From NCBI RefSeq assembly GCF_963676685.1, contig NC_092357.1, forward strand, positions 36,952,001 to 37,016,000: 64,000 nucleotides of DNA. The letters run 5' to 3'. A program made the translations under genes and the position numbers. This DNA comes from Mytilus edulis (Eukaryota). Below, piece after piece: positions 13,135-60,752 of this stretch. The notes below the pieces were generated by a model. The model ran no database searches. It worked only from the letters and a program-made list of their open reading frames with translations, and had not been told where the DNA came from. How positions within the stretch are numbered: position 1 is the first letter of the stretch; the number at the start of each line of letters is the position of its first letter.

Positions 13135-14861
13135 ATGACAACCGATGAAATTGCATCATTCTGCAACATTTGCCTAACAAGGGACCAAAATAAGTTGGCT
13201 GAAGAATACTGTCCGCAATGTGAAGAGGCTCTTTGTGGAGACTGTCGACATCACCATAAGATATCGAAATCGACAAAATCACATCAGACAATATCTTTAG
13301 AAAAATATAACAAATTACCATCTTTCATCAAGCAAATAAAGCATAACTGTCAGGAGCATGACTGCTTTCTTGAATGTTATTGTAAATGTCATGACTCTCT
13401 GTGCTGCAAACGATGTTTGATATCGAGTCACAAGGAATGCAAGGAAACTATTTTCATTGAGGATTTTCTAACACCTTCTTCAAGATATCACTCCGTAGCT
13501 TTACATAACATTGAAAAAGCCCTCAAAGATCTAGAAATTAATATTTGTTCCGCTTTAAAGGACAGAAATCGAAATTTAATCGAGTTACGTGAACAGAAGC
13601 AGAAGATTTCAGAGCAAATTAAGGAAAAACGTCAAGAAATCAATACACGCTTAGACAATCTAGAAGATGCATTACTAGAAAAGGCATCTGCAATGGAGAA
13701 TGAATACTGTCTGAAAATAAATAAAGTGATTGCAAAATTAGAGGATGAAAAAAAAAAGTAGACGAAATTAAAGACGATATTGATTCTGTCAAAATGTTTG
13801 CATCCAATTTACAAATTTTCATGGGAACAAAGGCATTCCAGGAAAATGTTTCAACCAACGAAATGAACGTCCAAGTTTTATACGATAATGGGAATCTTAA
13901 CAACATCACCATGGAATGTACGTTCAATGAAAAATTGGAAGAGTTAAGAGATGAAATAATGTCATTTGGTGATATAAAGGTAGACAATTCTGATAAACAT
14001 ACTTCTTTTTCCTGGAACGGTGATAAATCAGCACAGATTTATAAATCTATATTAGGAGCAAAAACAACTGAAAACATAAATGTCCGACTGGTACTAGTAT
14101 GTAAGATTAACATAGATGTCAATGGCCTTTCTGGATGTGCCATATCAGAAGCTGGAAACATGATTTTTCTACACGAACACAGCAATAGTCTGATAAAATA
14201 TGCGCCTAATGGTGAATTTATTTCAAAATCGGTTATCAACCCACAGGCAAAAGGCATTGGGTATGACCTTGCATTGATTGAATCTAATACTGTAGCTGTA
14301 TCAAGTGGTGGAAACTACCCTCAACATATTTACTTGATTGATATGAATAGTACAAAAACGAGTCAAATTTTTCAACTTGGGGACTGGTGTTACGGTTTAA
14401 GCTACAACAACAATTCATTTATTTGTTGCACGAATAAGAATGGCATTAAAATATTTGACAGATCACATGACAATTTGACTAATGCCCGGATATTGCCAAA
14501 TGCACCTGGAATGGTGGATAATACCTACGTTACCTCAAATAAAAATCGCATTTTTCATTCAAACTGGCGTGACCATTCAGTTGTTTGTTACGATTTTAGC
14601 GGGCAGGTACAATGGAAATACTGCGATTCGATACTAAGACAACCGTTTGGCATCACATTAGATTCTTATTCTAACATTTATGTTGCTGGTTCTGAGTCAA
14701 ACAATGTCGTAGTGATATCCAAAGATGGAAAGCAGGCCAAAGAACTTATTGGAGCTAATGACGAAATTTCAAATCCACGCGCCATGTATTTTGATAAAAA
14801 CAAAAACCTACTTCTTGTCACAAACTATAAGGGATATGCATTCCTATTTAACGTTACATAA
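13135..14861 (+). pseudogene. TRIM-like B-box/coiled-coil/NHL-propeller gene, copy 1; single -1 frameshift (may be an intact gene with a sequencing error)
   Basis: ORFs 13135-13761 and 13794-14861 are collinear with intact copy 4. The break is at an A10 run (13748-13757) where A11 would restore frame. Confidence 0.85.
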
Positions 14862-15007
14862 AATATATTGATACTGTTACAATCAATCTTCTTCTACTGG
14901 AACCTTTATTATGAGATAAAATATTGTAATGGCACAAATGCCATGCCAAGTTTATTATAGTATTGTTCCAGTTTATACATACATCAATTCAGGAATATGC
15001 ATTAAAT

Positions 15008-15461
15008 CATTGATTTCCTTGATAGTGGATTGCTGCTCACAAGGAAGCTATAAAACCAAGAGTTCCAAATGGTGAAAACTTCAAGTTGAAGTCATCCCTT
15101 TGTAAATTTTACAGACGCCATCACGAGTTGGTAATTGAATAACTGTTTCACAGATAATATCGGATATCCCTTCCCTTTTCACGAATGTGACCAACCAAAT
15201 TAGACAATTTACCGAATTTGTAAAAACATATGCAACACGACGGGTGCCACATGTGGAGCAGGATCTCATTACCCTTCAAGAGCATCTGAGATTGCCCCCG
15301 GTTTTTGGTGGGGTTCGTGGTGCTTAGTCATTAGTTATCTATCTTGTGTCTTCTGTACATTTATTTGTCTGTTTGTCTTTTTAATTTTTAGCCATGGCGT
15401 TGTCAGTTCATTTTCAATCTACGAGTTTGACTGTCCATCTTGTATCTTTCGCCCCTCTTTT
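15008..15461 (+). mobile_element. 3' fragment of a retroelement (Penelope-like RT C-terminus plus 3'UTR)
   Basis: Degenerate DFLDSGLLLTRKL...KSSL(R)KFY(G)RHHELV reading. Paralogous copy at 43386-43849. The family assignment is from recall. Confidence 0.6.
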
Positions 15462-15569
15462 AGTTTATAATTAATTGGTGAACGGTTAAACGTCAATTGC
15501 AAATATTGAGAAAGTAGTCGGATAGACGTATTGAAATAATGTATTGTGCATAAATCTTTTCAAAAAGAC

Positions 15570-17488: not shown

Positions 17489-17545
17489 AGCTTTCCGTTT
17501 CACATTTTACTCTGTGTATAAAGCTGGCTTCGAGGTTGAATCAGT
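17489..17545 (+). promoter_or_regulatory. Candidate core promoter: IRF-binding element (ISRE-like), TATA and initiator
   Basis: AGCTTTCCGTTTCAC (reverse strand GAAACGGAAAG = GAAANNGAAA) at 17489-17503, TATAAAG at 17517 and TCAGT at 17541. Conserved at 46311-46367. Confidence 0.45.
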
Positions 17546-18505: not shown

Positions 18506-18797
18506 TGCTATCTTTATTTGTCTTACTTAAAGGCAAGATCAACAAGCATCATGTGAGCATAAACAGTAAAGTTTAAAGGTATGAAGATGATAAAGATGCT
18601 ATCTTTATTTGTCTTACTTACAGGCAAGATCAACAAGCATCATGTGAGCATAAACAGTAAAGTTTAAAGGTATGAAGATGATAAAGATGCTATCTTTATT
18701 TGTCTTACTTAAAGGCAAGATCAACAAGCATCATGTGAGCATAAACAGTAAAGTTTAAAGGTATGAAGATGATAAAGATGCGATCTGTATTTGTCCT
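18506..18797. repeat. 91-bp tandem repeat, about 3.2 copies
   Basis: atctttattt recurs at 18510, 18601 and 18692. The paralogous site 47650-47757 has only about 1.2 copies. Confidence 0.95.
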
Positions 18798-21339
18798 AAT
18801 GATCTTTTCCACACTATGAACGAGTGAACTTTTATGTTAAATCAATAAACAGAAGTGTGCATTGGTAGTAAAGTTTAAATGTATGAAGATTATAAAGATG
18901 CACAACAACTAAAACTCATACAATGATACATTCAGGAAAGAACTTAAAAAACAATAGTTCTTAATTTCATAATAAATTATATCTGTTTTTCAAATGTTTG
19001 AATAAAATCAGATTTTCAAAACCTTCCTGTCAACAAAGACAAAACTACGCGCAAAATCACACTCACAAAAAAAAGAGTACAAAAAGTTTGACGGTGTTGT
19101 TAATTAGACATCAAAATCACTGGTGTTTCATCATGCAATTTTTATTTCAGCATCTACAGTAAAGAATCTTAGAATTATTTTAACATGTTTAAATTGAACC
19201 ACAAGGTTACTCAGGAGATTCACCCTAAGTGTCTGAATCTTTGTCAGAATATCAACGCGTACATTTTTACTTCATGCAAACTATGCACGCATGTTTTGTA
19301 GAAATATATACCGTATATTATTGAAATACAGGTGTTAATTATTCGTCTTTTGATTAAATAATACACGCGTATAAACTAAGATGATACGCGTATCTTTTCA
19401 CTTGTTGATATGGTTTGCTCTTCACGATACGAGCTGTGACCTTTACCTAGCACATTCGTTCATACTATTATTGTTAAGGAAAGTTGGGCCGACAACTAAC
19501 TATTGTTGATGTATTACATTGAATGATTGAAAATAAGATAAAATATTGAAGAATCTTTACCAAACAAAAAGGGGGTCCATTTTGCCGCTGTATCCTATAC
19601 GTAAGTTTGACTTTAGTTCATATTCATAAAGGGCTATAAGGGGCAAAATTGCCCTCAATTTCGAGAATTTTTCAAATTCTACTTATTCGTATGTGTATGG
19701 CTTTCTTTTTCCATTAGACATATTCATTTTATGACAAAAATGTTTTTTTGTAGTTATGACGTCATAATGCCGTATTTTGACAACACTTCACGTGCATATT
19801 TGTTGGCTTTTCACAATTTTTTACTCATTTTCATTCAACTTTTTTTACGAAAAAACTACCAGCGCATTCTTGCCCCCACGAAATATTTTGTCAGAGCAAT
19901 AATACCAACAAAATCATCTCATGTTGAAATATTTCAGTAGGGTAAAGCTGCGCTCTAACTGAATTTTAATTAAAAACTTGCTCAAAAACCGGCAGCAAAG
20001 TTCCAAAATTGTTCGTCCATTTTTCATATGTACCGTTATTGGACTAAGGTTGACCAGGAACAGTTGCATGAGTTGTATTTTTTTAACATATTATTTGTCA
20101 ATGGTTGATAACAATAAAGTTTCATTATAGAAATTAAATTATAAAGTGTTATTCTTCATATTAAAGTATAACATAGCCTCTCAAGTACAGCCTATCCCTT
20201 GTCGTCTATATTTATTGTAAGTGATTACGGAACTGACACAGAGAATTTTACTGGTTTCTGTTGTTCAGAAGCTTTTTACAGCGGAATAGAAATCAGTGTA
20301 TCATTCATTAAATACTTGATATTAACAGACAGAATTAAAAAAAAATTCAATATACAACTTTTAAAGACGTAAAAAATTCCACAGCACAGCTGGGGAGTGT
20401 TTTTGGTGGAAGAAGACTTCAAGTCTTCTGAAGGCCAATGGTGCCGACTTAAAATCATTGAATCTCTGTATGCCGCATTCGTTTCTGTGTATTGTAATTT
20501 CATAACAACTTCTGATTCCTGGCACCGATTTTTACACATGATTAAGCATCTTTTTTTGTTCTTTGGTTGTGAGCCAGAAGAGATCCATTTCTGTTGTTTT
20601 TGTTGGTTTTTTTTGCATTGGGAAGATCTTCTGGCTCTCTTCTACCTCTTCCCTTTAAATAGGTGGTTTAGAAGGCAGAGGCACAAAACAAAAATGGCGT
20701 TGTTTAGTTAAAATGACAATAATAAATAGAGTGCCTCCCCGTGCTTAAGGTTTATGCTCTTATATTATACTAGATTATGAGGTCTGCTCTATGGTCGGGT
20801 TGTTGTCGCTTTGACACATTCCCCATCTCCTTTCTCAATGTTATTATGAATGTAGATATATTAGAATGTGAGCTGTGTTATACATGTTTTTATGGTACGA
20901 CAGCCTTAGTAGGACATCTCTGTAGGATGATAAGCTAGATGAATATAAGAACTACACTGACAATAACAGTTAAGGGCCAACTATTTGATATTCTAGGGAA
21001 GGAATTTTGATTTATTGGTGTTAAACTCTACTTTCAACACTCATGATTTGGCTAGTGGTCAGTTTAAATCATTAGATAAGGAATAAAGAAGGAAAAAGGG
21101 TATTATTGATCATTTTAATATGTCACTAAACATGCCTATTTTTCAACTCTTGGCAGGCAACCATATTCATATACGAAATACTCCTGTCCCACCCCAACAG
21201 GAGTTATAAAATATCAGATGGTTTTCTCTTATTTAACACAACTTTAAATTGATGCTTATTTTTAACGCACAGTGACACATATTTCTTGCATATTCAGGAA
21301 ACACGAGATTAAACGTCAGATATATATAATATAAAAACG

Positions 21340-23935: not shown

Positions 23936-24142
23936 NNNNNNNNNNNNNNNNNNNNNNNNNNNNNNNNNNNNNNNNNNNNNNNNNNNNNNNNNNNNNNNNN
24001 NNNNNNNNNNNNNNNNNNNNNNNNNNNNNNNNNNNNNNNNNNNNNNNNNNNNNNNNNNNNNNNNNNNNNNNNNNNNNNNNNNNNNNNNNNNNNNNNNNNN
24101 NNNNNNNNNNNNNNNNNNNNNNNNNNNNNNNNNNNNNNNNNN
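23936..24142. other. Assembly gap (207 N)
   Basis: Run of N. Confidence 1.
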
Positions 24143-26615: not shown

Positions 26616-29115
26616 CATAATTATAGTTATATAATTTTAATTCCATACTTATTTTATTCATAGTAAGCAGCCATCTTTGTTGGTTAGCTGTTGCACAATT
26701 TTATCCAATGGTAAAAGAGACCACACAAAAGGGACAAAATAAGCATTGTTTACAATCAGATTTTTGCATGTGCCTGTAATTCAGTGGTTTTCGTTTGTTG
26801 CTATACATATATATATCATTGTTTTACGTCCATAGTTTTGTACATAATAAAGCCTATAAATTTCTCATTTGAATTTATCGTGATTTGTCATATCTAGGCC
26901 TCCTTGGCAATTATACTACATCTTCTTGTCTTTATTTTTACTAGTATGCACCCTTGTCCCATATGAATATCGGATACCCAAGATATATCCTAGTGTCGGA
27001 TTGCTTTCTTTAATCTTTATTATTATTGTCATTGGGATTTTTTTTTCTGACAGGCAATTGTCAAATAATGTCACGAACAAGTCGTTATTTCAATTACAAA
27101 AAAATATTGAAAAGATATCCTGACTGAATTACAACTTTGACGGACTGTGCATTATGCCATTACACTTACACAATTGTATATTTATAATTGTGCCTCTGTA
27201 TCTCCTTATGTCGTAGGAACTACAATCGATCTCAGTTCTGTTATATATAGTGCGATCTACACCATTCGTAAAAATGATCTTAAATGTTAACTTGGCATGC
27301 CATACTTGATGAAATGCGGACGTGAAAGAAAGCACTCTTCATGTACGCGTCAATGGAAATTTCATTCCCAAAGATTTCATCATTTAGCATGCGAAGAAGG
27401 TTGTACTAAACCAATAACATAACTGAAAGTTTTTTAATGGAAACATTATGATTTCGATATGTGAAAAACTGGGATAAAAACATGAAAATCATGGGCATGA
27501 ATCGGATGCATTCTTATTGAGGACCGAAGACAATTCAGATCACTGACATTGTTTCTGAGTTAGACATGTTAGAACAACCACATGCTGCATGATAAAAATA
27601 TTTCAAGTGAAATGCAAATTTTGATTATTACAAAATGTACCCTTAACCATTTCATGGTAAACAGGGACCAAACAATTCGGCATATTCTCATGGCATTACT
27701 TTTCACTGAAATTATTTTTCCATTTGAGAACATTTTATTATGAACTGGAAACAAATTAAACTAAAATATGAATATGTGTCCATAATAAATATGAACATGT
27801 TATAAGACATTTATTCAATAATTATTGGTACCTCAAAACTGTTTAAAAGAAGAATGTTATAATGTAATGCAAAAAGGGAAGTTATATAGGCCCTGATTTA
27901 CAATGCATTATGGGAAACACTTGCTAACTACCCAAACTTAATCATATGATTAAAAATTAATCGAATGATTAGTAAATTCAATGATTAAAATTAGTTGAAC
28001 AACGCAAATTAATCATTGTATTAACTAATCATGCGATTAACATTTGACGATTAATATGATTAGTTTAATCACAAGTTGAACAACAGACCACAGATATTTA
28101 AACCATTGCTATAAAGTGTATGTGTCCTACTTGACATTTATACACTTGTCACAGGTAAAATCAATAATCGCAAATAGTGTGAATTTAATCTATGAAGTTA
28201 CACAATAGCGTAAAGTCCGAGGATTTTATAATCAGGTAAGAAAGGGGGAATGGTACTTAATTAAAAAAAAAATGTCATAGATGTTTGGTTTTAAATGTTT
28301 TGTATCAAGTCAAAGTCTCCAATCCTTTCAGCCGACAAAAACAAAACTACTCGCACACTGTACAGTACACACATGTCGAAAGCGTTCAGTTTAATCATAA
28401 CAAACGTATCGTTGCTTTATCAAGTAAATTCCACATTAGGAAAGCATATTGTTTTGCTAATCAATAAGATATTATTTAACCACTACACAATTACAAGTAG
28501 AATGATCATGCATCTATTGTTGCAATATTTATCTTTAGATGTATAAAATGCATTTCCTCGTGTAATGTATAGTATAATTGATCTGGTAACTAATAATACA
28601 CATGTAAAACAACATCAAATAGTTTGACGTTGATGAGTTGGTATTTGATAGAGTTTGCGTTTTACCACAATATCTTTAAGGCGCTACTGACCATTTCCTG
28701 GCACCTTACATGCCTTCGTTCATGATATTCCAATTCAAGTTTAAATCAAGAAAACATGGCAGCATATATTCAAGTGCGTTTGGAATGTCGTTATCATAAC
28801 ATGATTAAATGATCAATACGTCGAGTTAGTGACATGAGGTTGAAATATCAAAAAACAATTACAAACAAAAAATAATTAAAAAAACAGAGAAAAAGGGGTC
28901 CCGTCTTTTAGCGCCTCTGTTAATAATATATAGTGAAAATAAAAATCTGGATAGCAATTGGTCTTGAAATCTTGAGTATGATGAATATGACATTAACACC
29001 TTTTAAATATTATTTTCATATTTGTCCTTAGGTTGAAAAAGTGGATTGCATATGAAGAAATGTCAAAATGTTAAGGCACTATATTTAACATACAAAAAGA
29101 TATCAAACTACAGAT

Positions 29116-30831
29116 ATGGCCACCGACCAAAGTGTATTACTCTGCGATGTTTGCAAAAAAAGACACCTTAATAAGTCAGCGGAGGAATATTGTCCACAAT
29201 GTGAAGAGGCTCTGTGTCGTGAATGTAGAGATCATCATAAGTTATCGAATTTGTTAAAATCGCATCAGACAATCACGGTAGACAAGTATAAGAAATTGCC
29301 ATCCTTCATCAAGCAAATTAGCCAAAACTGTGAGGAGCATGACTGCTTCCTTGAATTTTATTGCAAATCGCATGACGCACTTTGTTGTAAACTTTGTTTG
29401 ATATCCGGTCATAAGGAATGCAAGGGAACTATTTTCATTGAAGATTTTCTTAAGCCATTAACTGGGCATCAGTCAGCAGCTTTAGATAATATTGAAAAAG
29501 TTCTGCAAGATTTGCAAAATAACATTTGTTCCGCTATAAAGGACAGAAATCGTAATTTGACTGAAATACGCGAACAGAAGCGGGTAATTGGAACACAAAT
29601 TAAAGAAAAGCGTAAAATAATCAATAAACTTTTAGACTATTTAGAAGAAGAATTACTACAAAAGGTATCTACACTTGAAAAGACAAACTGTCGGGAAATT
29701 GAAGAAATAATTACGAAATTAGAGGATGAAAAAGTAAAAGTCGACGGAATTCAAAAAGATGTTGAATCTGTTAAAATGTTTGCTTCTTATCTGCAAATCT
29801 TCATGGGAACAAAGGCATTCCAGGAAAGCATTTCAACCAATGAAATCAACGTCCAACAATTATATAACAACGGGAGCTTAAACAACGTGACAATGAAATG
29901 TACTTTTAATGAAAAGCTAGAGGGGTTTATAAAACACATAAAAACATTTGGTGATGTAGAAATTGATAAAAGTGAAAAACATGTTTCTTTTTTATTTAAA
30001 GGGGACAAATCGGCACAAATTTTTAAACCTATGTTAGTGGCAAAATCGATTGAAAATATAAACGTCAGGTTAGGATGTAGGATTAAGATAAACAGCAAAA
30101 GTATATCTGGATGTGCAATATCACAAGCTGGAAACATGCTTTTTCTACAAACACACAGCAATAGTATGATGAAATATGCGCCTAATGGTAATTTCATTTC
30201 AGAATCAAGTATCAACCCAGAACCAAGCGGCTTTGGGTATGACCTTGCAGTTATTGATTCTAATACGGTAGCTGTATCAAGTGGTGGAAATAACCCTCAA
30301 CAAATTCACTTGATTGATATGAATAGTACAAACACGAGTCAAGTTTTTCAACTGGGCGACTGGTGTTGCGGTTTAAGCTACAGCAACGATTCATTTATTT
30401 GTTGCACGTATCATAATGGCATAAAAATATATGACAGGTCAAACTCTAACGTCCGGATACTTCCAAATTCTCCCAAATCGGCGGATCATACCTACGTTGC
30501 CTTAAATGCAAATCACATTTTTCATACCAATTGGCGTGATAATTCTGTTGTATGTTACGATTTCAATGGGCAGATACAATGGAAATATGTCGATTTTACA
30601 TTGCTTAGAGAACCATATGGCATCACATTAGATACTTATTCGAATGTTTATGTTGCAGGTTGTGACTCGAACAATGTAGTCGTGATATCTCCAGATGGAA
30701 AAAAGGCAAAGGAGCTAATTGGAGCTAGTGATAAACTTACAAATCCTCGTGCCTTGTTCTTTCATAAAACAAAACACTTGCTTCTAGTAGCAAACTATAA
30801 CAATGGCGCCTCGGTGTATGATGTTATGTAA
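29116..30831 (+). CDS. RING-less TRIM-like protein (B-box1, B-box2, coiled coil, NHL-like beta-propeller), 571 aa, copy 2
   Basis: B-box1 CDVC..CPQC..CREC..H..H; B-box2 CEEH..CKSH..CKLC..HKEC; heptad-rich helix; NHL-like PYGITLDTYSNVYVAG..NNVVVIS and NPRAL. Acceptor AG at 29031. Confidence 0.92.
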   Translation: MATDQSVLLCDVCKKRHLNKSAEEYCPQCEEALCRECRDHHKLSNLLKSHQTITVDKYKKLPSFIKQISQNCEEHDCFLEFYCKSHDALCCKLCLISGHKECKGTIFIEDFLKPLTGHQSAALDNIEKVLQDLQNNICSAIKDRNRNLTEIREQKRVIGTQIKEKRKIINKLLDYLEEELLQKVSTLEKTNCREIEEIITKLEDEKVKVDGIQKDVESVKMFASYLQIFMGTKAFQESISTNEINVQQLYNNGSLNNVTMKCTFNEKLEGFIKHIKTFGDVEIDKSEKHVSFLFKGDKSAQIFKPMLVAKSIENINVRLGCRIKINSKSISGCAISQAGNMLFLQTHSNSMMKYAPNGNFISESSINPEPSGFGYDLAVIDSNTVAVSSGGNNPQQIHLIDMNSTNTSQVFQLGDWCCGLSYSNDSFICCTYHNGIKIYDRSNSNVRILPNSPKSADHTYVALNANHIFHTNWRDNSVVCYDFNGQIQWKYVDFTLLREPYGITLDTYSNVYVAGCDSNNVVVISPDGKKAKELIGASDKLTNPRALFFHKTKHLLLVANYNNGASVYDVM

Positions 30832-33800
30832 AGCAAAAACATACAATAAACCTTTTTTTCAAATGGAATCACATATGTGTTACTAAATTCAGAATTGAAT
30901 AAAAGCCTTGGAGTAAATTTTATCTAGAGTAAATCTTATTTTCAGGCCTCAATGACGACTAGCAAGCCATCTTACACACATATCAATTCCTAAAAGACAA
31001 AAGAAATCTATTTCTATCTATCAATCACTGTTTCGTCAATGCTCAATCGTAATTATAATCACATATTTTAACAGATTGTTGTCTTGAACTGAATACCTTC
31101 CCAAACAGTAGGTTGAAATTTATAACTTTAATTTTAAAAGTTTCAAAAATCATTTTGTTTCAGTCCTGTCCTTAAAATTACATCATTCCGAAATTTCCGT
31201 TGAAGTTTTTATAAATTCTTTAAAACAAAATTCTAAAAGTAAGAAGTACTAAGCTATTGGAAATATGAAATAATCAGACCCTTATCTTCAAAAATTTTAT
31301 GCAAAAGTTTTATTGAAATTAATTAATAGAATGATTGTTACTTGTCCTTATGACGTAGTTAGTCGTTTTTAGTTAAAAAAAATATTGTAACGAGCAATAA
31401 CAAAGGGAAATATGCACACGTGTTTAATAACACAAGGTATACGTCATTGATATATGTAACTATAGTTACTCAAATCCCAAGATGGAGGACGTAGAATTCT
31501 GAAAAACGTTTCTTAAAATTTATAGAAAAAGAATAGTTTGATATATTTGTTTGTTGAACCAAAAAAGGGAGAAAAACTATCCAAATCCATTTCTTAACTC
31601 GTAAATAATCATGTCAGATGGAAAACGTTTTAGTTGGATGATGTATGTAAACAACGTAAAATTGACTAAAGATCGTTGTTTTCTTTGCGTCCAGTGGCAA
31701 CAACTTTCGTATTTAAAAAAGCAATTGATAATTGAACACAATTTTTGCATATCATCATTGTCAATTAGTTATACTTATAGAAGGGAAATGGGGGTGAATG
31801 CTTCAATATCTAATTATACTGATTGCTTATTCTTTTCCGAAAATTTCGACAATTGGTATGAGTTGACGATCATATCACATCGTATTTATAAAGCTATATT
31901 TCAAATGAGGATCATCTTCGTTCGAGTTAAATAACAGATGATTTTAATTTTATATGGTATAAAACTGAGTATCAAGTACGGTATCATTTCAATTGACTGA
32001 TTACTTGCTTTTTTGCGTTATGACAAGAGGGAACAATAAAAAAAATCATGCATTTTAAAAATCATCAGTTAAAAACTACAATAAGAGCAATTTTAAGAAA
32101 TTGTCCTTTGATCTTACTGACTGATAACTTCCTTTCTCGTCACAGTGTTATGCAAAATTGTCGCTAGAAATTAAGAGCGCAGTTTCCCGATGTCAATGAA
32201 ATTAACAAAGTCGTCATAAGTAAAATAGCGATAAACAGATTATCATTGGTCATCTCAAGGCAACAAAATCAATCTCGTTGAGATGGTAAACGATAATCTA
32301 TAAATAATAATACTATCATGACCAGTTATAATATTTTAAGAATAAAACATATAGTATCTTGAATGGTTGACTTGCGTATAACGCCACTGTCAGCACTAGT
32401 GTCCTTTTCGTAGTTTTTATTGATGGAGGAGCCGAATGGTCTAGAGAGAACCACCGACCTATGGCCAGAAAATTGACAATTAAAATTAGAGTCGAAAAAC
32501 ATAAGTGTTTGCAGACAAATAATACAGTAGTTCGACTTATTATACCACTCGAACATCTTGTTACCTTCTATGTATTTAATTAATGTTGAAAACCAAAGAC
32601 TTATCTATCTAAAAAAGTATAGTTTGTATTTGTGTCAAATTAAGTTTAAGTAAGGTAAGGAACCAAACGTTGTGTACTGGGGAATTGCTGTACTGATTTA
32701 TTAAGGAGACAAAAGGTTTGCATTTCAATATTGTGTAGTTTATATTTGTATTTGTTTACTCAAAAGAGATTGGGGCAATTGATTCTACATAAACAAAGGC
32801 AACAGTAGTTTATCCCTGTTCAAAAGTCATGAATCGATTGAGAGAAAACAAAGTCAAGTTACAAAATGAAATACACATATTACAGTCTTTGTAGTATATT
32901 CCTTATGTACATGAGAGACCGTCTTCATACAACATGTCTTATTTTCACGACAAACACTCGACTTGGGTAAACTTTCAGCCCAGGATTAACGTCGATTAAA
33001 AAAAAATCAAAATCTATCCTTCATTTATCGGTCACACAAAAAGGTTCTTAAATGAATGTTGTTAAATTACGTAATCAATAGAGAGAAGGTTATCCAGATA
33101 TTTCTGATATCGATATGTGTCCCACTTGAACTGATATATAACACACTTGTGTACGTGTATTCTTACAGGTAAAATCAATCAGTATAGATACAAAAGTTTA
33201 AATGTATGAAGATACACAACAACTACAATTGGTATGATGTAACAATCAGGTAGGAACAAGTAAAATTCTAAATTCTGAATTGCATAAGGCGTCATATCTG
33301 TTTTTCAATTGATCGCCCTTAAAATAAATTTTTTGAAATCTTCAATCCAGCAACAACAAAAGTACACGCAAAACCACACCCGTAGACCAAACAGTACACA
33401 AAGTATGGCGGCCTATATAAAAAGGAGAAACAAAGAAAACTTATAAACAACACAAACAAACGACAAAATTCACATCAATTAATTATAAGAATGATTTTGA
33501 ATGGAACTAAAAGATATCAACACGTAAGAGTATGATGTCCTTGGTCGGATAAGAAAGCGTACATGATACTGCAAGTCAAACTACACATTGTTTGTTCTTA
33601 TAGAAATAAACGCGGAAAAAAATTATCTGGTAATTAGATCATATATGCGTATCAATTTAGGATATGCGTGTGCCTTTCCGCTTCTATAATTGTTCGTGTA
33701 ATGGGGTTTGCTCTTTTAACCCTATATCTTAAGAGATGCCTACATTAATCTGGCACCTGAGTATATACTATTCCTGTACAGTTTTAAAATTAGAAAAGTA

Positions 33801-34700: not shown

Positions 34701-36410
34701 ATGGCCACTACGGAAATAGCAACATTCTGTGATATTTGCCTAATCAGGGACCTAAATAAGTTGGCGGAAGAATTCTGTCCACAATGTGAAGAGATTCTTT
34801 GTGGAGATTGTCGAAATCATCATAAGATATCTAAATCGTCAAAATCACACCAGACCATCTCTATAGGCAAATATAACAAATTACCATCGTTCATCAAGCA
34901 AATAAAGCATACCTGTGAGGAGCATGACTGCTCCCTTGAATTTTATTGCAAATCTCATGACTCTCTTTGCTGCAAACTGTGCTTGATATCAGGACATAAG
35001 GAATGCAAGGAGACTATTTTCATTGAAGATTTTCTTACGCCATCACAAGGACACCAATCAGCAGCTTTATCTAACGTTGAAAAAGTTCTAATAGATCTGG
35101 GTGATAACATTAGTTTCGCTATAAAGGACCGAAATCGAAACATGAAAGAACTACGTGAACAGAAGAGGGTTATTGTAGAAAAAATTAAAGAAAAGCGTCA
35201 AGAAATAAATACAGTTTTGGACCATTTAGAAGGAGAATTACTAGAAAAAGTATCTGCACTAGAGAAGACAAACTGTCGGGAAATAGAAGAGATAATTACG
35301 AAATTGGAGGAAGAAAAAGAAAAGTTAAACGAAAATCAAAAAGATGTTGAATCTGTGAAAATGTTTGCTTCTAATCTGCAAATCTTCATGGGAACAAAGG
35401 CATTCCAAGAAAGGATTTTAACCAATGAAGTCAACGTCCAACAAGTATATGACAACGGGAGCTTAAACAACGTGACAATGAAATGTACTTTCAATGAAAA
35501 GCTAGAGGGGTTTATAAAACACATAAAAACATTTGGTGATGTAGAAATTGATAATAGTGAAAAACGTGTTTCTTTTTCATGGAAAGGTGACAAGTCAGCA
35601 CAATTTTTTAAGTCAGAAGCAAAATCTATTGAAACCATAAACGTCAGGTTAGGACGTAGGATTAACATTAATAGCAGAAGTATTACTGGATGTGCCATAT
35701 CAGAAGCTGGAAACATACTATTTCTACAATTACACCGCAATAGTATGATGAAATATGCGCCTAATGGTAAATTTATTTCAGAATCACGTATCAAGCCAGA
35801 AGCAAGCAGCATTGGGTATGACCTTGCAGTGATTGATTCTAATACTGTAGCTGTATCAAGTGGTGGAAATCCCCCTCAACAGATATATTTGATTGATATG
35901 AATAGTACAAACATGAGTCAAGTTTTGCAACTGGGCGACTGGTGTTGCGGTTGAAGCTACAGCAACGATTCATTTATTTGTTGCACGTATCATAACGGCA
36001 TAAAAATATATGACAGGTCGAACTCTAACGTGCGGATACTTCCAAATTCTCCCAAATCGGCAGGTGGTACCTACGTGGCCTCAAATGCAAATTGCATTTT
36101 TCATAGCAATTGGTGTGATGATTCTGTTGTATGTTACGATTTCAGTGGGCAGGTACAATGGAAATATATCGATTCTTCATTGCTTAGAAAACCATACGGC
36201 ATCACATTAGATACTAATTCGAATATTTATGTTGCAGGTTCTGACTCGAACAATGTAGTCGTGATATCTCCAGATGGAAAACAGGCGAAAGAGCTAATTG
36301 GAGCTAGTGACAAACTTACAAATCCTCATGCTTTGTTCTTTCATAAAACCAAACACTTGCTTCTAGTAGCAAACTATGACAATGGCGCCTCGGTGTATGA
36401 TGTTATTTAA
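34701..36410 (+). pseudogene. TRIM-like copy 3 with a single in-frame nonsense codon
   Basis: TGA at 35952-35954 where paralogues have TTA (Leu). The downstream ORF 36030-36410 is in the same frame and otherwise intact. Confidence 0.88.
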
Positions 36411-39134
36411 GGCAAAAAAAAACAATGAACTTTTTTTCAAATAGAATCACATATGTGTTACTAAATTCAGAATTTAATAAAAGCCTTGGAGTAAATTTTA
36501 TCTAGAATCAATCCTATTTTCAGACCTCAATGACGACTAGCGAGCCATCTTACACACATATCAATTCCTAAAAAACACGAGAAATCTATTTCTATCTATC
36601 GATCACTGTTTCGTCAATGCTCAACCGTAATTATAATCACATGTTTTAACAGATTGTTGTCTTGAACTCAATGCCTTCCCAGGCAGTAGGTTGAAATTTA
36701 TAACTTTAATTTTAAAAGTTTCATAAATCAATTTGTTTCCGTCCTGGCTTTAAAACTACATCATTCCGAAATTTCCGTTGAAGTGTTTATAAATTCTTTA
36801 AAGATAAATTCTAAAAGTAAGAAGTACTAAGCTATTGGAAATATAAAATAATCAGACCCTTTTCTTCAAAATTTTTATGCAAAAGTTTAATTGAAATAAA
36901 TTGATAGAATGATTGTAATTTGTCCTCAATACGTAGTTTGTCTTTTTAATTGGGATGGTTTTGTGATGAGACTAACAAAGGGTGATATGTTATATGTCAA
37001 TGAGGCAACAACTAAAAATCAAAATTTACCGATAATCAAACACAGGGCTACATACTGTCATTAATCATGCACACGTGTTAAATAACACAAGGTATACATC
37101 AATGAAATATGTAGCTATAGTAACAGAAATACTTTAATGGAGGACGTAGAATTCTGAAAAAAAAAAAACGTTTCTTAAAATTTGTAAAAACGAATAGTTT
37201 TATATGTTTGTTTGTTTGTACCAAAAAAGGGAGAATTACTAGAAATTATTGATGGAGAAGTAAAGAGAAAAAATCAACTGTTGAAAAATTAAATTATGTC
37301 AGTTAAGTAAATGAAAATAAAGATATCGGTGACAGCTAATGATTATGATGTCAGTATTCAAAACCATTTCTGAACTAAATAATCATGTCAGATGGAAAAC
37401 TTTCTAGTTAGATGATGTAGATTAACAACGTAAAATTGACTAAAGATCGTTGTTTTCTTTGCGTCCAGTGGCAACAACTTTCGCATTAAAAAAAGCAATA
37501 GATAATTGAACACAATTTTTGCATATCGTCATTGACAATTAGTAATACTTATAGATGGGAAATGGGGGTGAATGTTTCAATATCTGATTATACTGGTTGC
37601 TTATTCTTTTCGACAATTGGTGTGGGTTGACAATCATATCACATCGTATTTATAAAGCTATATTTCAAATGAGGATCATCTTCGTTCGAGTTAAATAACA
37701 GATGGTTTTAATCTTATATGGTATAAAACTGAGTATCAAGTACGGTATCATTTTAATTGACTGATTACTTGCTTTTTGCGTTATGACAAGAGGTAACAAT
37801 AAAAAGAAATCGTGCATTTTAAAAATCATCAGTTAAAAACTACAATCAGAGCAATTTTAAGAAATTTTACTTTGATCTTACTGACTGATTACTTCCTTTC
37901 TCGTCACAGTGTTATGAAAAATTGTCGCTAGAAATTAAGGGCGCAGTTTCCCGATGTCAATGAAATTAACAAAGTCGTCATAAGTAAAATAGCGATAAAC
38001 ATATTATCATTGGTCATCTCAACTTGATTGCTTTCTAATTTTTGGTGTACCGTCTTAGGAAGAAAATCAATCTCGTTGATACGATAAACGATAATATATT
38101 AATAGCAATACTATCATGACCAGTAATAATATTTTAAGAATAAAACATATAGTATCTTGATTGGTTGACTTGCGTATAACGCCACTGCGAGCACTAGTGT
38201 CCTTTTTTGTAGTTTTTATTGATGGAGGAGCCGAATGGTCTAGAGAGAACCAACGATCTACGGTCAGAAAATTGACAATTAAGATTAGAGTCGATAAACA
38301 TAAGTGTTTACAGACAAATAATACAGTAGATCGACTTATTATACCACTCGAACATCTTGTTACATTCTATTCACTTTTAAATTAATGTTTAATACCAAAT
38401 ACTTGTCTATCTAAAAAAAGTATATTTTGCATGTGTCATATTAGGTTTAAGTAAAACAATGGACTAAACGTTGTGTACTGGGGAAATTACTGTACTGATT
38501 TATTAAGCAGACAAACTGTTTACATGTGTAGTTTATATTTGTATTTGTTTACTCAACAGAGATTGGGGCAATTGATTATACATAAACAAAGGCAACAGTA
38601 GTTTATCCCTGTTCAAAAGTCATAAATCGCTTGAGAGAAAACAAAGTCGAGTTACAAAATGAAATACACATATTACAGTCTTTGTAGTATATTCCTTAAA
38701 TTCGTGAGACGGATTTGAAGTACATGAGAGACCGTCTTCATACAACATGTCTTATTTTCACGACAAATTATCAACTTGGGTAAACTTTCAGCCCAGGATA
38801 AACGTCGATTAAAGAAAAGAAATCAAACTATCCTTCATTTATAGGTCACACAAAAAGGTACTTAAATGAACGTTGTTAAAAAACGTAATCAATAGAGAGA
38901 AGTTTATCAAGATATTTCTGATATCTATATGTGTCCCACTTGAACTGATATTTAACACACTTGTGTACGTGTATTCTCACAGGTAAAATCAATAAGTATA
39001 GATAGAAAAGTTTAAATGTATGAAGATACACAGCAACTATAATTGATATGATGTTACAATCAGGTAAGAACAAGTAAAATTCTAAATTCTGAATTTCATT
39101 ATGTCTGTTTTTCAATTGATCGCCCTTAAATCAA

Positions 39135-41531: not shown

Positions 41532-43253
41532 ATGGCAACCGATGAAATTGCATCGTTCTGCAACATTTGTCTAACAAGGGACCAAAATAAGTTGGCTGAA
41601 GAATACTGTCCGCAATGTGAAGAGGCTCTTTGTGGAGACTGTCGACATCATCATAAGATATCGAAATCCACAAAATCACATCAGACAATCTCTTTAGAAA
41701 AATATAATAAATTACCATCTTTCATCAAGCAAATAAAGCATAACTGTGAGGAGCATGATTGCTTTCTTGAATGTTATTGTAAATGTCATGACTCTCTGTG
41801 CTGCAAACGTTGTTTGATATCAAGTCATAAGGAATGCAAGGAAATTATTTTCATTGAGGATTTTCTAACACCTTCTACCGGATATCACTCCGTAGCTTTA
41901 CATAACATTGAAAAAGCCCTCAAAGATCTAGATACTAATATTTGTTCTGCTATAAAGGACAGAAATCGAAATTTAACCGAGTTACATGAACAGAAGCAGA
42001 AGATTTCAAAGCTAATTAAAGAAAAACGTCAAGAAATCAATACACGTTTAGACAATTTAGAAGATGCACTCCAAGAAAAGGCATCTGCAATGGAGAATGA
42101 ATACTGTCTGAAAATAAATAAAGTGATTGCAAAATTAGAGTATGGAAAAAAGAAAGTAGACAAAATTATAGAAGATGTTGATTCTGTCAAAATGTTTGCA
42201 TCCAATTTACAAATCTTCATGGGAACAAAGACATTCCAGGAAAATGTTTCAACCAATGAAATTAACGTCCACGAATTGTGTGATAATGGTAAGCTCAACA
42301 ACTTCACAATGGAATGTACGTTCAATGATAAACTGGAAGAGTTAAGGAACGAAGTAAAGGTATTTGGTGACATAAAGGTAGACAATTGTGATAAACATAT
42401 TTCTTTTTCCTGGAGAGGTGATAAATCAGCACAGCTTTATAAATCTACATTAGGAGCAAACTCTATTGAAAATATAAATGTCACACTTGTTCGTAAGATT
42501 AACATAAATGTCAATGGCCTTTCTGGATGTGCCATATCAGAAGCTGGAAACATTATGTTTCTACACGACCACAGCAATAGTCTGATAAAATATACGCGTA
42601 ATGGTAAATTTATTTCAAAATCGGTTATCAACCAACAGGCAAAAGACATTGGGTATGACCTTGCAGTGATTGATTCTGATACGGTAGCTGTATCAAGTGG
42701 TGGAAACGACCCTCAACAGATTTACTTGATTGATATGAATACTACAAAGACCAGTCAAGTTTTTCAACTTGGGGACAGGTGTTACGGTTTAAGCTACAAC
42801 AACAATTCCTTTATTTGTTGCACGCATATGAATGGCATCAAAATATATGACAGATCGCACGACAATTTGACTAATGCCCGGATATTGCCAAATGCACCTG
42901 GAATGGTGGCTTATACCTACGTTACCTCAAATAAAAATCGCATTTTTCATACAAACTGGCGTGACCATTCTGTTGTTTGTTACGAATTAAGCGGGCAGGT
43001 ACAATGGAAATACTGCGATTCGATACTAAGACAACCGTTTGGCATCACCTTAGATTCTTATTCTAACATTTATGTTGCTGGTTCTGAATCAAACAATGTC
43101 GTAGTGATATCCAAAGATGGAAAGCAGGCCAAAGAACTTATTGGAGCTAATGACGGAATTTCAAATCCACGCGCCATGTATTTTGATAAAAACAAAAACA
43201 TACTTCTTGTCACAAACTATAAGGGATATGCATTCCTATTTAACGTTACATAA
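41532..43253 (+). CDS. RING-less TRIM-like protein, 573 aa, copy 4
   Basis: Same domain layout as copy 2 and closest to copy 1. Acceptor AG at 41447. Confidence 0.92.
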   Translation: MATDEIASFCNICLTRDQNKLAEEYCPQCEEALCGDCRHHHKISKSTKSHQTISLEKYNKLPSFIKQIKHNCEEHDCFLECYCKCHDSLCCKRCLISSHKECKEIIFIEDFLTPSTGYHSVALHNIEKALKDLDTNICSAIKDRNRNLTELHEQKQKISKLIKEKRQEINTRLDNLEDALQEKASAMENEYCLKINKVIAKLEYGKKKVDKIIEDVDSVKMFASNLQIFMGTKTFQENVSTNEINVHELCDNGKLNNFTMECTFNDKLEELRNEVKVFGDIKVDNCDKHISFSWRGDKSAQLYKSTLGANSIENINVTLVRKININVNGLSGCAISEAGNIMFLHDHSNSLIKYTRNGKFISKSVINQQAKDIGYDLAVIDSDTVAVSSGGNDPQQIYLIDMNTTKTSQVFQLGDRCYGLSYNNNSFICCTHMNGIKIYDRSHDNLTNARILPNAPGMVAYTYVTSNKNRIFHTNWRDHSVVCYELSGQVQWKYCDSILRQPFGITLDSYSNIYVAGSESNNVVVISKDGKQAKELIGANDGISNPRAMYFDKNKNILLVTNYKGYAFLFNVT

Positions 43254-47516: not shown

Positions 47517-47964
47517 CCACAAAATGTACTACAATAAACTAAGACAGGGTAAATAATTGAGATGTTACCCTCATGTAGTATTGCAGTGAATCATATTATA
47601 TTCGGAAGATACATGTTATAGAAAGCAGTTAAATATCTTAAATAATTTTGCTATCTTTATTTGCCTTACTTAAAGGCAAGATCAACAAGCATCATGTGAG
47701 CATAAACAGTAAAGTTTAAAGGTATGAAGATGATAAAGATGCTATCTTTATTTGTCCTAATGATCTTTTCCACACTATGAACGAGTGAACTTTTATGTTA
47801 AATCAATAAACAGAAGGGTGCATAGATAGTACAGTTTAAATGTATGAAGATTATAAAGATGCACAACCACTAAAAATTATACAATGATACATTCAGGAAA
47901 GAACTTAAAAAACAATAGTTCTTAATTTCATAATAAATCATATATGTTTTTTAAATGTTTGAAT

Positions 47965-56224: not shown

Positions 56225-56620
56225 GTATTTTTCAATTGATTTTTATAGTTCGTTCTTATGTTGTACTGTTACACCACTGTCTCAGGTTGGAGGGAGGGTT
56301 TGGGATCCCGCTAAAATGTTTAACCCCACCATATTCTCTTTGTATGTGACTGTCCCAAGTTAGAAGCCAGTATTGCTGTGGTTGTCGTTTGTTTATGTGT
56401 TGCATATTTGTTTTTCGTTCATGTTTTTGTACATAAATTAGACCGTTAGGTTTATCGTTTAAATTGTTTAACATGGTTATTTCGGAGCCTTGTATAGCTG
56501 ACTATGCGGTATGGGCTTTGCTTATGGTTGAAGGCCGCACGGTATAGTTGTTAACTTCTGTGTCATTTTGATGTCTTGTGGAGAGATGTCTCAATGGCAA
56601 TCATACCAAATCTTTTTTAT
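56225..56620. repeat. SINE-like repeat in the opposite orientation to 50095-50476
   Basis: Reverse-complement match across most of its length. Confidence 0.75.
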
Positions 56621-59036
56621 ATATAAGCTTGGATATACGGATTTTCCTATTCTTGTTTTGCAAGTTGTGTTTAAAGTTGAATAGGTCAATGATCAATGCA
56701 TCGATTTAAAAAAAAAGAATTAAAAAAAACATTTCAGTGTGGACAGACAGACATGACAGACTAATACCAAGAATTTGTTTAACTGAGCATGAAACATATG
56801 TCATACACTACGAATCTGTTATGTAATTAAAAATATCATGAAGCAGCAATCCTCGTTGTATTCAAATGATGGCAATTGCTTTGCTTTAGTAGACAATAAA
56901 AACATTGTGTTATGCGTTAATTAAGGAGTTGACAGTTAACATGGTAAAGGGTCGTGAAGAGGAATCAAATTACGACCATGTTTAAACAACGTTAATTGTC
57001 CAGAAAAACAGTCACCAGGCAAAGAAGGACATCGATAAAAAATCAACGCATTTTATATTTCAAATAAATATTAACATCTTTCATGGGTTTCGACATTCTT
57101 TTTTGTTGTTCCCATTCAAAGGTACTTACATAGACTGCGTTGGGGAAATGATTGAGATGTTCTCCTCGTGCAATAATTGTAGTGGATTGTATTGAATTAC
57201 GAACACAATAGAGGGACATTTAACTCTTTCAAATACTTTTGATATCTTTATGTGTCCTATTTGTATATATTGTATTGATCTTTTACACACTAGTCTATAA
57301 TTATATTCACAGGTAAACTCTATAAGTATAGATAGCAAAGTTTTAATGTATGGAGATAAACAACAACTAAAAGTCGTAGGAGGTTAACATCAGGTAAGAA
57401 CGATGAAAGCAATAGTTTTAAATTTCATATCGAGTCATATATGCTTTTCAAATGTTTTGCATAAAAGTAAATGTCCGAAACCTTACAGGCAACAAAAACA
57501 AAAGTCAATACAAAATCACTTCCATTAACCAAATAGTACACAAAGTACGACGGAGTGTAAATTGTCGTTTTCATCATGCAAAGTTCACATATATCTAGAA
57601 TAAGAGTATGATGTCATTGCCGGATAACTCGTATATTTATACTGCATACATAGAATATAAACGTTGACAATATATACGCGTATGTAGTAGAAATAAACGT
57701 GACTGTGTACATAATGTATCTGGTGATTAAATAATATAAATCTAGAAGAAACGCGTACATTGTGTTTTCTTTCACCTATGTGAACCGGTCGATCACAAAC
57801 GGTTATTCACTTTATGACATTATATCTTAAGAGCTGCTGACCTCTCCATGGCTTCTAAGAACCAACTATTCTTAACAAATGGACAAAACGAACAGTGGTA
57901 CAGCAATAACAATATCGTTGATGCATTCACAATGAAATAGTGAAAATAAGTTAAAATATTAAAGAATATGTACTGACATAACTTCTAAAAAGGGTCCACA
58001 TTACCCTAATTATAAGTAGTATTAAAGTTGAAATATAAGTGACCTATACAAATATTAGTCTTAAAAAAGACGTTGAATTAGCTTATCGATTTCTCTCTTT
58101 TAATTTTGGTTAATTCGAGAAAAGGGCCTTCTCCAAATATCAGCGTCATAATTTTTTTTATTGAAACGGGTTGCATTTTTCTTTTCTTTTTTGGCATGCA
58201 TTGAAATATGGTATCGACATAATGGATGTACTGAGTTTTTTTGTGATGAAATTTAATCACTGATAGCAAATCATCATTCAAAAAGTAAAATCACAACAAT
58301 ATTAAACTCTGAGGAAAATTCAAAACAAAAAATTCCTAATCAAATGGCAAAATCAAAGCGCAAAACCATCAATCAAAGGGATAACAACTTTCACATTTCT
58401 GACTTGGTACAGTAATTTTCTTATGTAGAGAATGGTTGATTAAACCTAGTTTTATAGCTAGCTTAACCTCTATATCCTTTTTTCACGTAAAATCTACTTG
58501 AAAATCACTAAAAAGTTAATTGGTTTTTTTTTTCAATTTTCAAAATGAAACTATTCAAACATATCTCAATTTTGAAGTTCAATTCAAAATATTATTGAAA
58601 ATACCAATATTTTTTTTGTTAACTTCACGTGAAATTAGCATCCATGATTTCCGTGTAAGCTCATTTTAGGTATACTTCGCGTAAAATATTTCAACTCAAT
58701 TTTACGTGAGAGGTATTTGAAATTCAAAAGATGAAAATTTACCCTTGTAGGACCCATAATTTTGTCTTGTTAAAATATTGTCACGGATTGACAGAAACCT
58801 AGTAGAATAACACCATAACTATGTTTTGTCATTATAACGATGTATTTTCTGTTCATAGAGTACAGACCATTCAAACTTCATTTTATCGACATCGAACAGA
58901 TAATTTTTCTCTTCCATCAGCATAGATTTTTACAATTACATTTTTTTCTGTAGGTCATTAGGTTGTTTACCGATGAAGAAATGTCCAAATCATAAGAAAT
59001 TTTGTCTAACATCAACTAAGACAAGCTATAATTGAA

Positions 59037-60752
59037 ATGGCAAACAACGAAAGTGCATCATTCTGCGTCATTTGCCAAAGCAGGGACCTTAATAAGTTAG
59101 CGGAAGAATACTGCCCACAATGTGAAGAGGTTCTTTGTGGAGATTGTCAACATCACCATAAGACATCGAAGTCGACAAAATCACATCAAACAATCCCTAT
59201 AGAGAATTATAAAAAATTACCATCCTTTATCAAGCAAATTACCCATAATTGTAAGGAGCATGATTGCTTTCTTGAATTTTATTGTAAATCTCATGAATCT
59301 TTTTGTTGTAAAATTTGTTTGATATCAGGCCACAAGGAATGCAAGGAAACTATTTTCATTGAAGATTTTCTTAAGCCATTACCTGGGCACCAGTCAGCAG
59401 CTTTAGATAATATTGAAAAAGTTCTGCAAGATTTGCAAAGTAACATCTGTTCCGCTATAAAGGACAGAAATCGAAATTTGACTGAATTACGCGAACAGAA
59501 GCGGGTAATTGAAGAACAAATTAAAGAAAAGCGTAAAGAAATCAATAACCTTTTAGACAATTTAGAAGAAGAATTATTACAAAAGGTATCTATACATGAA
59601 AAGACAAACTGTCGGGAAATAGAAGAAATAATTACGAAATTAGAGGACGAAAAAGAAAAAGTAGACGAAATTCAAAAAGAGGTTGAATCTGTCAAAATGT
59701 TTGCTTCTAATCTGCAAATCTTCATGGGAACAAAGACATTCCAAGAAAGTATTTCAACCAATGAAATCAACGTCCAACAAGCATATGACAACGGGAGCTT
59801 AAACAACGTCACAATGAAATGCACCTTTAGTGAAAAGCTAGAGGGGTTTATAAAACACATAAAAACATTTGGTGATGTAGAAATTGATAATAGTGAAAAA
59901 CATGTTTCTTTTTCATGGAAAGGTGACAAATCAGCACAAAATTCCAAACCGATGTCTGTGGCAAAATCGATTGAAAACATATACGTCCGGTTAGGAAGCA
60001 AGATTGATATAAATCATGACGGTATATCTGGATGTGCCATATCAGAAGCTGGAAACATGCTATTTCTACAAGCACATTGCAACAGAATGATGAAGTATGC
60101 GCCCAATGGTGAATTCATTTCAGAATCACGTATTAACCCAGAGGCAAACGGCATTGGATATGACCTTGCAGTTATTGATTCTAATACGGTAGCTGTATCA
60201 AGTGGTGGAAATACCCCTCAACAGATTTACTTGATTGATATGAAAAGTACAAACATGAGTCAAGTTTTGCAACTGGGCGACTGGTGTTACGGTTTAAGCT
60301 ACAGCAACGATTCATTTATTTGTTGCACGTATCATAACGGCATAAAAATATATGACAGGTCGAACTCTAACGTGCGGATACTTCCAAATTCTCCCAAATC
60401 GGCGGGTGATACCTACGTGGCCTCAAATGCAAATTGCATTTTTCATACCAATTGGCGTGATGATTCTGTTGTATGTTACGATTTCAGTGGGCAGGTAAAA
60501 TGGAAATATATGGATTCTTCATTGCTTAAAAAACCGTACGGCATCACATTAGATACTAATTCGAATATTTATGTTGCAGGTTCTGACTCGAACAATGTAG
60601 TCGTGATATCTCCAGATGGAAAACAGGCAAAAGAGCTAATTGGAGCTAGTGACAAACTTACAAATCCTCGTGCCTTGTTCTTTCATAAAACAAAACCCTT
60701 GCTTCTAGTAGCAAACTATAACAATGGCGCCTCGGTGTATGATGTTATTTAA
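59037..60752 (+). CDS. RING-less TRIM-like protein, 571 aa, copy 6
   Basis: Same domain layout; the body is closest to copies 2 and 3. Acceptor AG at 58953. Confidence 0.92.
   Translation: MANNESASFCVICQSRDLNKLAEEYCPQCEEVLCGDCQHHHKTSKSTKSHQTIPIENYKKLPSFIKQITHNCKEHDCFLEFYCKSHESFCCKICLISGHKECKETIFIEDFLKPLPGHQSAALDNIEKVLQDLQSNICSAIKDRNRNLTELREQKRVIEEQIKEKRKEINNLLDNLEEELLQKVSIHEKTNCREIEEIITKLEDEKEKVDEIQKEVESVKMFASNLQIFMGTKTFQESISTNEINVQQAYDNGSLNNVTMKCTFSEKLEGFIKHIKTFGDVEIDNSEKHVSFSWKGDKSAQNSKPMSVAKSIENIYVRLGSKIDINHDGISGCAISEAGNMLFLQAHCNRMMKYAPNGEFISESRINPEANGIGYDLAVIDSNTVAVSSGGNTPQQIYLIDMKSTNMSQVLQLGDWCYGLSYSNDSFICCTYHNGIKIYDRSNSNVRILPNSPKSAGDTYVASNANCIFHTNWRDDSVVCYDFSGQVKWKYMDSSLLKKPYGITLDTNSNIYVAGSDSNNVVVISPDGKQAKELIGASDKLTNPRALFFHKTKPLLLVANYNNGASVYDVI

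Follow-up and report, generated by a model that had tools for sequence, protein, structure and literature searches.

RING-less B-box/coiled-coil/propeller genes in a tandem array of Mytilus edulis: mosaic copies, conserved stems, and signs of positive selection on the propeller

The window analyzed here is a stretch of 64,000 nucleotides on C14 (NC_092357.1, positions 36952001 to 37016000) of the mussel Mytilus edulis (assembly GCF_963676685.1; genome size, 1.37 Gb). Between positions 13135 and 60752 it holds six paralogous plus-strand genes for proteins with B-boxes, a coiled coil, and a C-terminal propeller. Stop-to-stop open reading frames (ORFs) and self-alignment (tblastn E values near 0) confirmed this set of same-strand copies, which an initial annotation, made from the sequence alone, had described as ranging from intact to decayed. 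Pairwise DNA identity between the copies is 72 to 93%. Three are intact, namely, c2 (29116 to 30831; 571 amino acids [aa]), c4 (41532 to 43253; 573 aa), and c6 (59037 to 60752; 571 aa), the last of which is transcribed. Two carry a single lesion: the full-length c1 (13135 to 14861), 93% identical to c4, is one base short in an A run (13748 to 13757), which shifts its frame at about codon 205, and the mosaic c3 (34701 to 36410) has a premature TGA at 35952 to 35954 (codon 418). Both lesions, the first of them in a homopolymer, are read from the assembly alone, and each could be an allele or an assembly error; if real, they would leave truncated B-box/coiled-coil products of 208 and 417 aa (13135 to 13761 and 34701 to 35954). 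Because both stops fall within the last exon, such mRNAs may evade exon-junction decay, and their products could serve as headless partners. The sixth copy, c5 (50968 to about 52655), is a decayed pseudogene with a stop at codon 24 and several further stops and frameshifts.

The array exceeds the window. With the flanks, examined as 20 stretches with one 10-kb stretch ahead of the last copy left out, it comprises 15 full-length copies (9 intact, 3 with a single lesion, and 3 decayed) and one fragment, spread over 135 kb (C14, 36.885 to 37.019 Mb). Two divergent copies, 57% identical to the rest, lie 80 to 110 kb past the array, at 37.097 and 37.129 Mb (L018:1357-3048 and L020:3024-4715 in the flanking stretches); they are 32 kb apart and 99% identical to each other, as expected of either a recent segmental duplication or uncollapsed haplotypes.

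The genes consist of one non-coding exon and one coding exon and lack a RING, a structure that is seen directly in the c6 transcript and is read from homology in the other copies. The transcription data comprised contigs of two runs and two raw runs, in which c5 and c6 were examined. Contigs from both of the former span all of c6 and differ from it at few positions, lack a GT..AG intron of 1,560 bases (57394 to 58953), and extend 44 to 49 bases into an upstream non-coding exon (57345 to 57393, plus strand); a TATA-like TATAAGTA lies about 25 bases ahead of their 5' ends, which, being contig ends, cannot show a start. The exon 2 leader (58954 to 59036) has in-frame stops at -78, -63, and -30, and thus no upstream exon on this acceptor can add a RING; together with the spliced joint, these stops rule out a RING exon spliced on upstream of c6. 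A predicted acceptor lies 65 to 85 bases before the ATG in all 17 copies, the two divergent ones included, and is followed by in-frame stops in 14 of them, the other three being decayed. In c6, the AG found two bases ahead of several ATGs is not the acceptor used. The description of these genes as single-exon therefore needs amending: a short upstream exon makes two, only one of which is coding. The pseudogene c5 has next to no coverage in any of the four runs.

No RING was found in Pfam scans of the three intact window copies, among the listed Pfam domains of 50 of 50 homologues, or in the array and its flanks by tblastn with the RING regions of four relatives (best E value, 0.02). The absence of a RING, already asserted in the initial annotation, is thus upheld by Pfam and by the c6 transcript. 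Nor did we make any of the observations that the annotation had named as incompatible with its proposal of a diversifying family: no RING exon is joined to the coding sequence, the copies are not invariant, and c6 is transcribed.

Pfam scans and structure prediction, the checks suggested at that time, returned B-boxes, a coiled coil, and a propeller without a RING. In the three intact window copies, Pfam detects two B-boxes (PF00643 above the cutoff in c6 and c2 and below it in c4; PF22586 in all three) and gives weak matches to a coiled coil and a propeller, and none to the NHL repeat. An AlphaFold2 model of c6, built on a 32-sequence alignment (mean predicted local distance difference test [pLDDT] score, 79; predicted template modeling score, 0.49), places the first B-box at about residues 9 to 55, the second at about 70 to 112, a coiled-coil helix at 122 to 252, a further helix at 266 to 274, a low-confidence linker at 283 to 309, and a six-bladed propeller of 24 strands (pLDDT about 90) at 317 to 570, with no filamin domain between stem and head. 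The top Foldseek matches of the propeller are the NHL domains of Thin, Brat, Mei-P26, TRIM2, and NHL-2 (E values of 1e-13 to 1e-14), with which it shares 11 to 19% identity. Profile searches likewise connect the head to NHL chains of TRIM3, Brat, and TRIM2 (1e-14 for TRIM3 and Brat) and the stem to B-box/coiled-coil chains of TRIM28, TRIM25, and TRIM5, the B-box also matching MID1 and the coiled coil TRIM3, while a protein atlas returned mollusc B-box/NHL clusters (score, 0.97 to 0.99). Model, fold search, and profile search thus agree on the C-terminal six-bladed propeller of TRIM-NHL proteins; of the parts of a TRIM/RBCC E3 ligase, the B-boxes and coiled coil are present and the N-terminal RING is absent. 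Brat itself lacks both RING and filamin. The predicted product is therefore a RING-less TRIM-NHL-like protein with the layout of Brat.

Selection was estimated with our own codon models (GY94, F3x4) on the nine intact copies of the array, leaving out the six broken and the two divergent ones. The ratio of nonsynonymous (dN) to synonymous (dS) substitution rates, omega, was 0.16 in the B-boxes, 0.26 in the coiled coil, 0.30 in the coil-linker, and 0.39 in the propeller; the stems are under purifying selection. Comparing model M2a with M1a, the likelihood ratio test (LRT) statistic was 20.8 in the propeller and 0 in the other three parts, so that no positive selection was found in the B-boxes, coiled coil, or linker of these copies. 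The class with omega above 1 takes in about 5% of propeller sites (4 to 6%), at an omega of 3.9. A second, protein-guided alignment of the propeller gave statistics of 18.6 (M2a against M1a), 26.3 (M8 against M7), and 21.4 (M8 against M8a). When five segment-specific trees were used, the propeller LRT was 13.7, above the maximum of 6.7 reached in 43 null simulations that included recombination.

The same test was applied to a second, unrelated cluster, on C1 at 66.69 to 66.91 Mb, with 12 copies, 6 of them intact. Its stems are near-identical, with tree lengths of 0.11 to 0.19 versus 0.94 for the propeller, which makes it a cleaner test case than the C14 array. Here the propeller LRT was 33.7, or 22.7 with segment trees (maximum in 46 null simulations, 13.7), and outside the propeller a single site gave an LRT of 4.5, which is not significant. 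An artifact of recombination, considered as an explanation, did not reproduce the signal in any simulation of either cluster. Hence, the propellers of both clusters show signs of positive selection that survive recombination controls, in agreement with the earlier suggestion of a diversified C-terminal recognition domain, and the signal is confined to the propeller.

We then assigned the best-scoring sites to top and bottom loops as defined for NHL domains (PMC4015489), the labels following the predicted strand order and not three-dimensional contacts. Five of the six C14 sites scoring above 0.9 are on the top face (H327, G372, T393, S455, and G457; P = 0.024), with C467 on the bottom, as are all seven of the best C1 sites (P = 0.0007), which puts 12 of 13 on one face.

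Mosaicism is the other feature of the array: the best-matching neighbor copy changes along the gene. In c3, the N-terminal part is 97% like the upstream copy g07 and the rest is like g02 and c6, with a break near codon 173; informative sites are g07-like by 107 to 4 before it and g02-like by 262 to 38 after it, and the recombination chi-square is 249 compared with a maximum of 25 in 1,000 permutations. For each of the 15 copies, the best of 1,365 triplets beat all permutations, although chi-square values above 50 were reached in only about ten, some of which reflect a recombinant parent. Beyond the array, trees of the stem (N terminus) and of the propeller, built from 37 of 52 proteins, reject each other (FastTree and approximately unbiased tests). 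Several proteins of other assemblies combine a stem 85 to 91% like an array copy with a propeller half only 55 to 62% like any; a c4-like N terminus (89 to 91%), for example, is joined to propeller halves about 60% like any array copy. It is therefore likely that heads have been exchanged between copies.

The copy set itself also turns over. Broken copies make up 6 of the 15 in the C14 array and 6 of the 12 in the C1 cluster. The pseudogene c5 and the upstream copy g04 have a frameshift in common, have both lost the donor, and show dN close to dS, which argues that they were duplicated after dying. Among 46 of the 52 proteins, the array shares propeller lineages with proteins labeled M. trossulus, M. 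galloprovincialis, M. coruscus, and M. californianus, whereas another six lineages are absent from it, two of these holding proteins labeled M. edulis. This comparison points to haplotypes that differ in their copy sets. The birth-and-death evolution proposed from the window alone thus holds, both in the share of broken copies and in lineages common to and absent from other assemblies.

The same annotation had presented this as a special locus, which motif counts across the genome do not bear out: the family is very large and has many such clusters. The first B-box, searched as a 35-base pattern, matches at 746 places in the genome, versus 85 for the reversed control. Forty sites, taken at even steps from 100 listed matches, comprised 23 unbroken RING-less B-box/propeller ORFs, 7 broken ones, 4 with a RING, 1 with a B-box only, and 5 chance matches. 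Given that this sample is clustered and drawn from three chromosomes only (C1 to C3), the resulting figure of roughly 450 to 650 RING-less loci is an estimate. Relatives that share this layout but carry a RING are numerous too: by a hand count, 72 of 121 scored matches have their beginning in the RING region. In a tree of mussel proteins only, they fall outside the clade that holds the array, although the deep nodes are weak.

Homologues of the c6 upstream exon were found for 15 units, 0.8 to 3 kb from the coding exon where there is one. In the window, all on the plus strand, they lie at 10520 to 10568 (c1; donor GTAAGA at 10569), 28185 to 28235 (c2), 33200 to 33249 (c3), 39015 to 39063 (c4), 47822 to 47896 (c5), and 63345 to 63396, the last belonging to g15, the intact copy that follows c6 and has a coding exon beginning 1,463 bases past the window; the 5' ends of the c1 to c4 exons are approximate, and their splicing is predicted from the c6 exon. 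The donor is GT in 12 units and GA in c5, g04, and an orphan c5-type exon of a seventh window unit (18861 to 18935, plus strand), after which no coding sequence follows in readable DNA, a statement limited by a run of N at 23936 to 24142. Just upstream of the c5-type first exons stands a 91-base repeat similar in its unit to a part of those exons, at 18506 to 18795 (three copies, orphan unit) and 47649 to 47759, and is also repeated at g04. Upstream ORFs in the leaders are not conserved between copies in position or length.

Other features of the region include a duplicated block at 12.1 to 23.9 kb, which takes in the orphan exon and matches 40.4 to 50.8 kb; a 707-base unit in near-perfect tandem duplication at 640 to 2435 (99.6% identity), either a recent duplication or an assembly artifact; and a tandem repeat of about 27 copies of a 33-base unit at 2583 to 3553. 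A degenerate retroelement on the minus strand (3899 to 6122) holds a reverse transcriptase fragment (Pfam RVT_1; E value, 3e-5) and is followed by an ORF with no Pfam match that we take to be a tyrosine recombinase look-alike, as in DIRS-like elements. Further retroelement fragments, presumably of non-LTR (long terminal repeat) or Penelope type, lie between array copies (L007:4942-5916 and L008:4239-7178, minus strand). Within 70 kb downstream of the array are a Mab-21/cGAS-like gene with one internal stop (Pfam Mab-21_C; E value, 4e-15; L014:4945-6888, minus strand; C14, about 37.061 to 37.063 Mb), located in the gap that separates the array from its two outlying copies, and a DZIP3-type HEPN exon (L016:8689-9354, plus strand), with a propeller-like exon 4 kb farther on (L017:2606-3484, plus strand), the two possibly forming one HEPN-propeller gene. 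Both the Mab-21/cGAS-like and the HEPN families are common in bivalves, so their nearness adds little.

How do these genes compare with known systems? The TRIM-NHL proteins belong to Marin's subfamily C, with TRIM2, TRIM3, TRIM32/Thin, TRIM56, TRIM71, and Mei-P26 and, as RING-less TRIM-like members, Brat and Wech (PMC3503706). The mussel proteins resemble them in their two B-boxes, long coiled coil, and six-bladed NHL-type propeller, and resemble Brat in lacking RING and filamin. They differ from TRIM-NHL proteins in lacking a RING, in giving no Pfam NHL match (as scanned in the three intact window copies), and in sharing only the low head identity given above; in heads that are under positive selection and lack a constantly basic top face; and in being encoded by one coding exon in hundreds of copies instead of three to five. 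With fish finTRIM, btr, and trim35-hltr and with primate TRIM5, they share tandem clusters of paralogues whose C-terminal head recombines and is under positive selection (PMC3137616). Unlike those families, which combine a RING with a B30.2 (PRY-SPRY) head, they have no RING and a propeller head, and antiviral function, shown for some of the former, is at most a candidate role for the mussel proteins. TRIM-like genes that arose from TRIMs and lack a RING have been described (PMC3503706 and PMC8146955), and variable propellers diversified by recombination occur among immune expansions of other architectures in marine invertebrates (PMC8195603). Within bivalves, a B-box zinc finger orthogroup, OG708, is expanded to 135 genes, or 8.9 per species (Regan et al. 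2021, PMC8382680); OG708 may correspond to the mussel family, and its table row carries nothing on RING loss, mosaicism, or selection. The Aplysia TRIM count takes in RING-bearing genes only (PMC9334734), and the main texts of two papers on mussel presence/absence variation (PMC7653742 and PMC10514466) make no mention of B-box, tripartite, NHL, or propeller genes, although their supplements may list the family. We found no study of the RING-less mussel family in the literature searched, which did not extend to subscription journals and to which the supplements of PMC8382680 may be an exception. New here are the mosaic copies, the purifying selection on stems, and the positive selection on propellers in two clusters. 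We place the family outside the RING E3 TRIMs and regard it as a TRIM-NHL-like variant without a RING whose evolution resembles that of a receptor repertoire.

The fish btr and trim35 genes likewise combine a conserved stem with a head, in their case B30.2, that is selected and exchanged (PMC3137616), and it is on this resemblance that we read the array as a recognition repertoire; the authors of that study caution that such selection signals need experimental proof. Taking sequence, model, and analogy together, we consider it somewhat probable that the array is part of a diversified cytosolic recognition repertoire in host-pathogen conflict, binding changing, probably pathogen-derived protein targets. 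In TRIM proteins, the coiled coil forms an antiparallel dimer bearing two heads, and such dimers can cluster by way of their B-boxes. By extension, each mussel head would bind its target on the top face, and antiparallel dimers would carry two heads and cluster through B-box contacts; clustering on a multivalent target would provide avidity, and the target might be sequestered or passed to a separate E3 ligase or autophagy adaptor. Unequal crossover and gene conversion would place new heads on old stems while other heads are deleted or broken, leaving each haplotype its own head set, and breadth would come from the several hundred such genes per genome. It is tempting to extend this to a germline intracellular repertoire on the scale of NLRs or finTRIMs (about 500 genes), with head swaps, top-face selection, and haplotype-specific sets, in which mixed dimers of array neighbors with two specificities cluster on viral or parasite proteins and recruit the smaller RING-bearing pool for ubiquitin signaling; this fuller version is possible but less likely than not.

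Several observations pull away from a recognition repertoire, and some of them suit a different reading, in which the proteins are host-directed adaptors or scaffolds (in proteostasis, stress, or trafficking), copy number drifts by unequal crossover, and head variation reflects relaxed surface loops and gene conversion. Omega is below 1 in every part, the selected class being confined to its few percent of propeller sites, and mean omega does not differ between top loops (0.46; 0.37 to 0.56) and bottom loops (0.44; 0.32 to 0.59). At the 0.8 level, only six of nine C14 sites are on the top face, and the site scores are naive empirical Bayes posteriors from our own code, with nine and six sequences and a constant synonymous rate. 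Consensus motifs for interferon-stimulated response elements, NF-kB, and gamma-activated sites occur in 0 of 15 upstream units, and no interferon/NF-kB/STAT promoter motif rises above shuffles. One raw RNA run has no c6 reads, and another covers part of the gene about 1 to 2 times. Finally, large families turn over readily in this genome, as the half-broken C1 cluster attests. We nevertheless regard host-directed adaptors as unlikely, because, with recombination controlled for, both clusters still require an omega class above 1, and the best sites crowd onto a single face.

The initial annotation had raised RNA binding as in Brat or TRIM71, and the heads might indeed belong to translational regulators like Brat, or to proteins that sense RNA of viruses or transposons, with sequence preferences that vary from head to head. 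The domain order, RING-less and without filamin, is that of Brat, and Brat, Mei-P26, and NHL-2 are among the top fold matches. RNA-binding NHL domains, such as those of Brat and LIN-41/TRIM71, have a positively charged top face (PMC4015489), but the net charge of the mussel top-face loops, a residue count and not an electrostatic map, is -3, -3, -2, -2, -1, +1, +2, +2, and +7 in the nine copies, negative in five and highest in g07, and no copy has more than one arginine among its six pre-strand positions. TRIM-NHL heads bind partners via the top face and differ there, and the heads of TRIM2 and TRIM3 have mixed charge (PMC9634614), which leaves the RNA reading some room. A top face that is not constantly basic argues against a common Brat- or TRIM71-like RNA role and for varied, likely protein, targets, and we consider RNA binding, as the annotation had it, unsupported and improbable. 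It had also suggested that the proteins may borrow E3 activity by heterodimerizing, in which case RING-less copies would be substrate receptors that pair with RING TRIMs through the coiled coil into a modular E3 ligase. Relatives that could supply the RING do exist, as the sampled sites and scored matches attest, but in all three compared, the coiled coil is only 14 to 17% identical to that of c6; none lies in the array, and the nearest among the matches listed is about 5 Mb away. Pairing between TRIM coiled coils occurs mostly among close paralogues, and we judge such a ligase improbable.

In bivalves, the known immune expansions involve extracellular and membrane receptors, such as C1q proteins, lectins, and Toll-like receptors. 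The C14 array alone is one ordinary cluster, and the interest lies in the pattern across a family whose members are now annotated as "uncharacterized" or "B box-type" proteins. It offers testable handles in named head sites, natural head-swap chimeras, and haplotype differences that could be linked to disease survival in farmed mussels. If a recognition repertoire is the right reading, bivalve immunity would gain an intracellular layer missing until now, made up of several hundred genes for cytosolic proteins that bear the mark of an arms race on one binding face.

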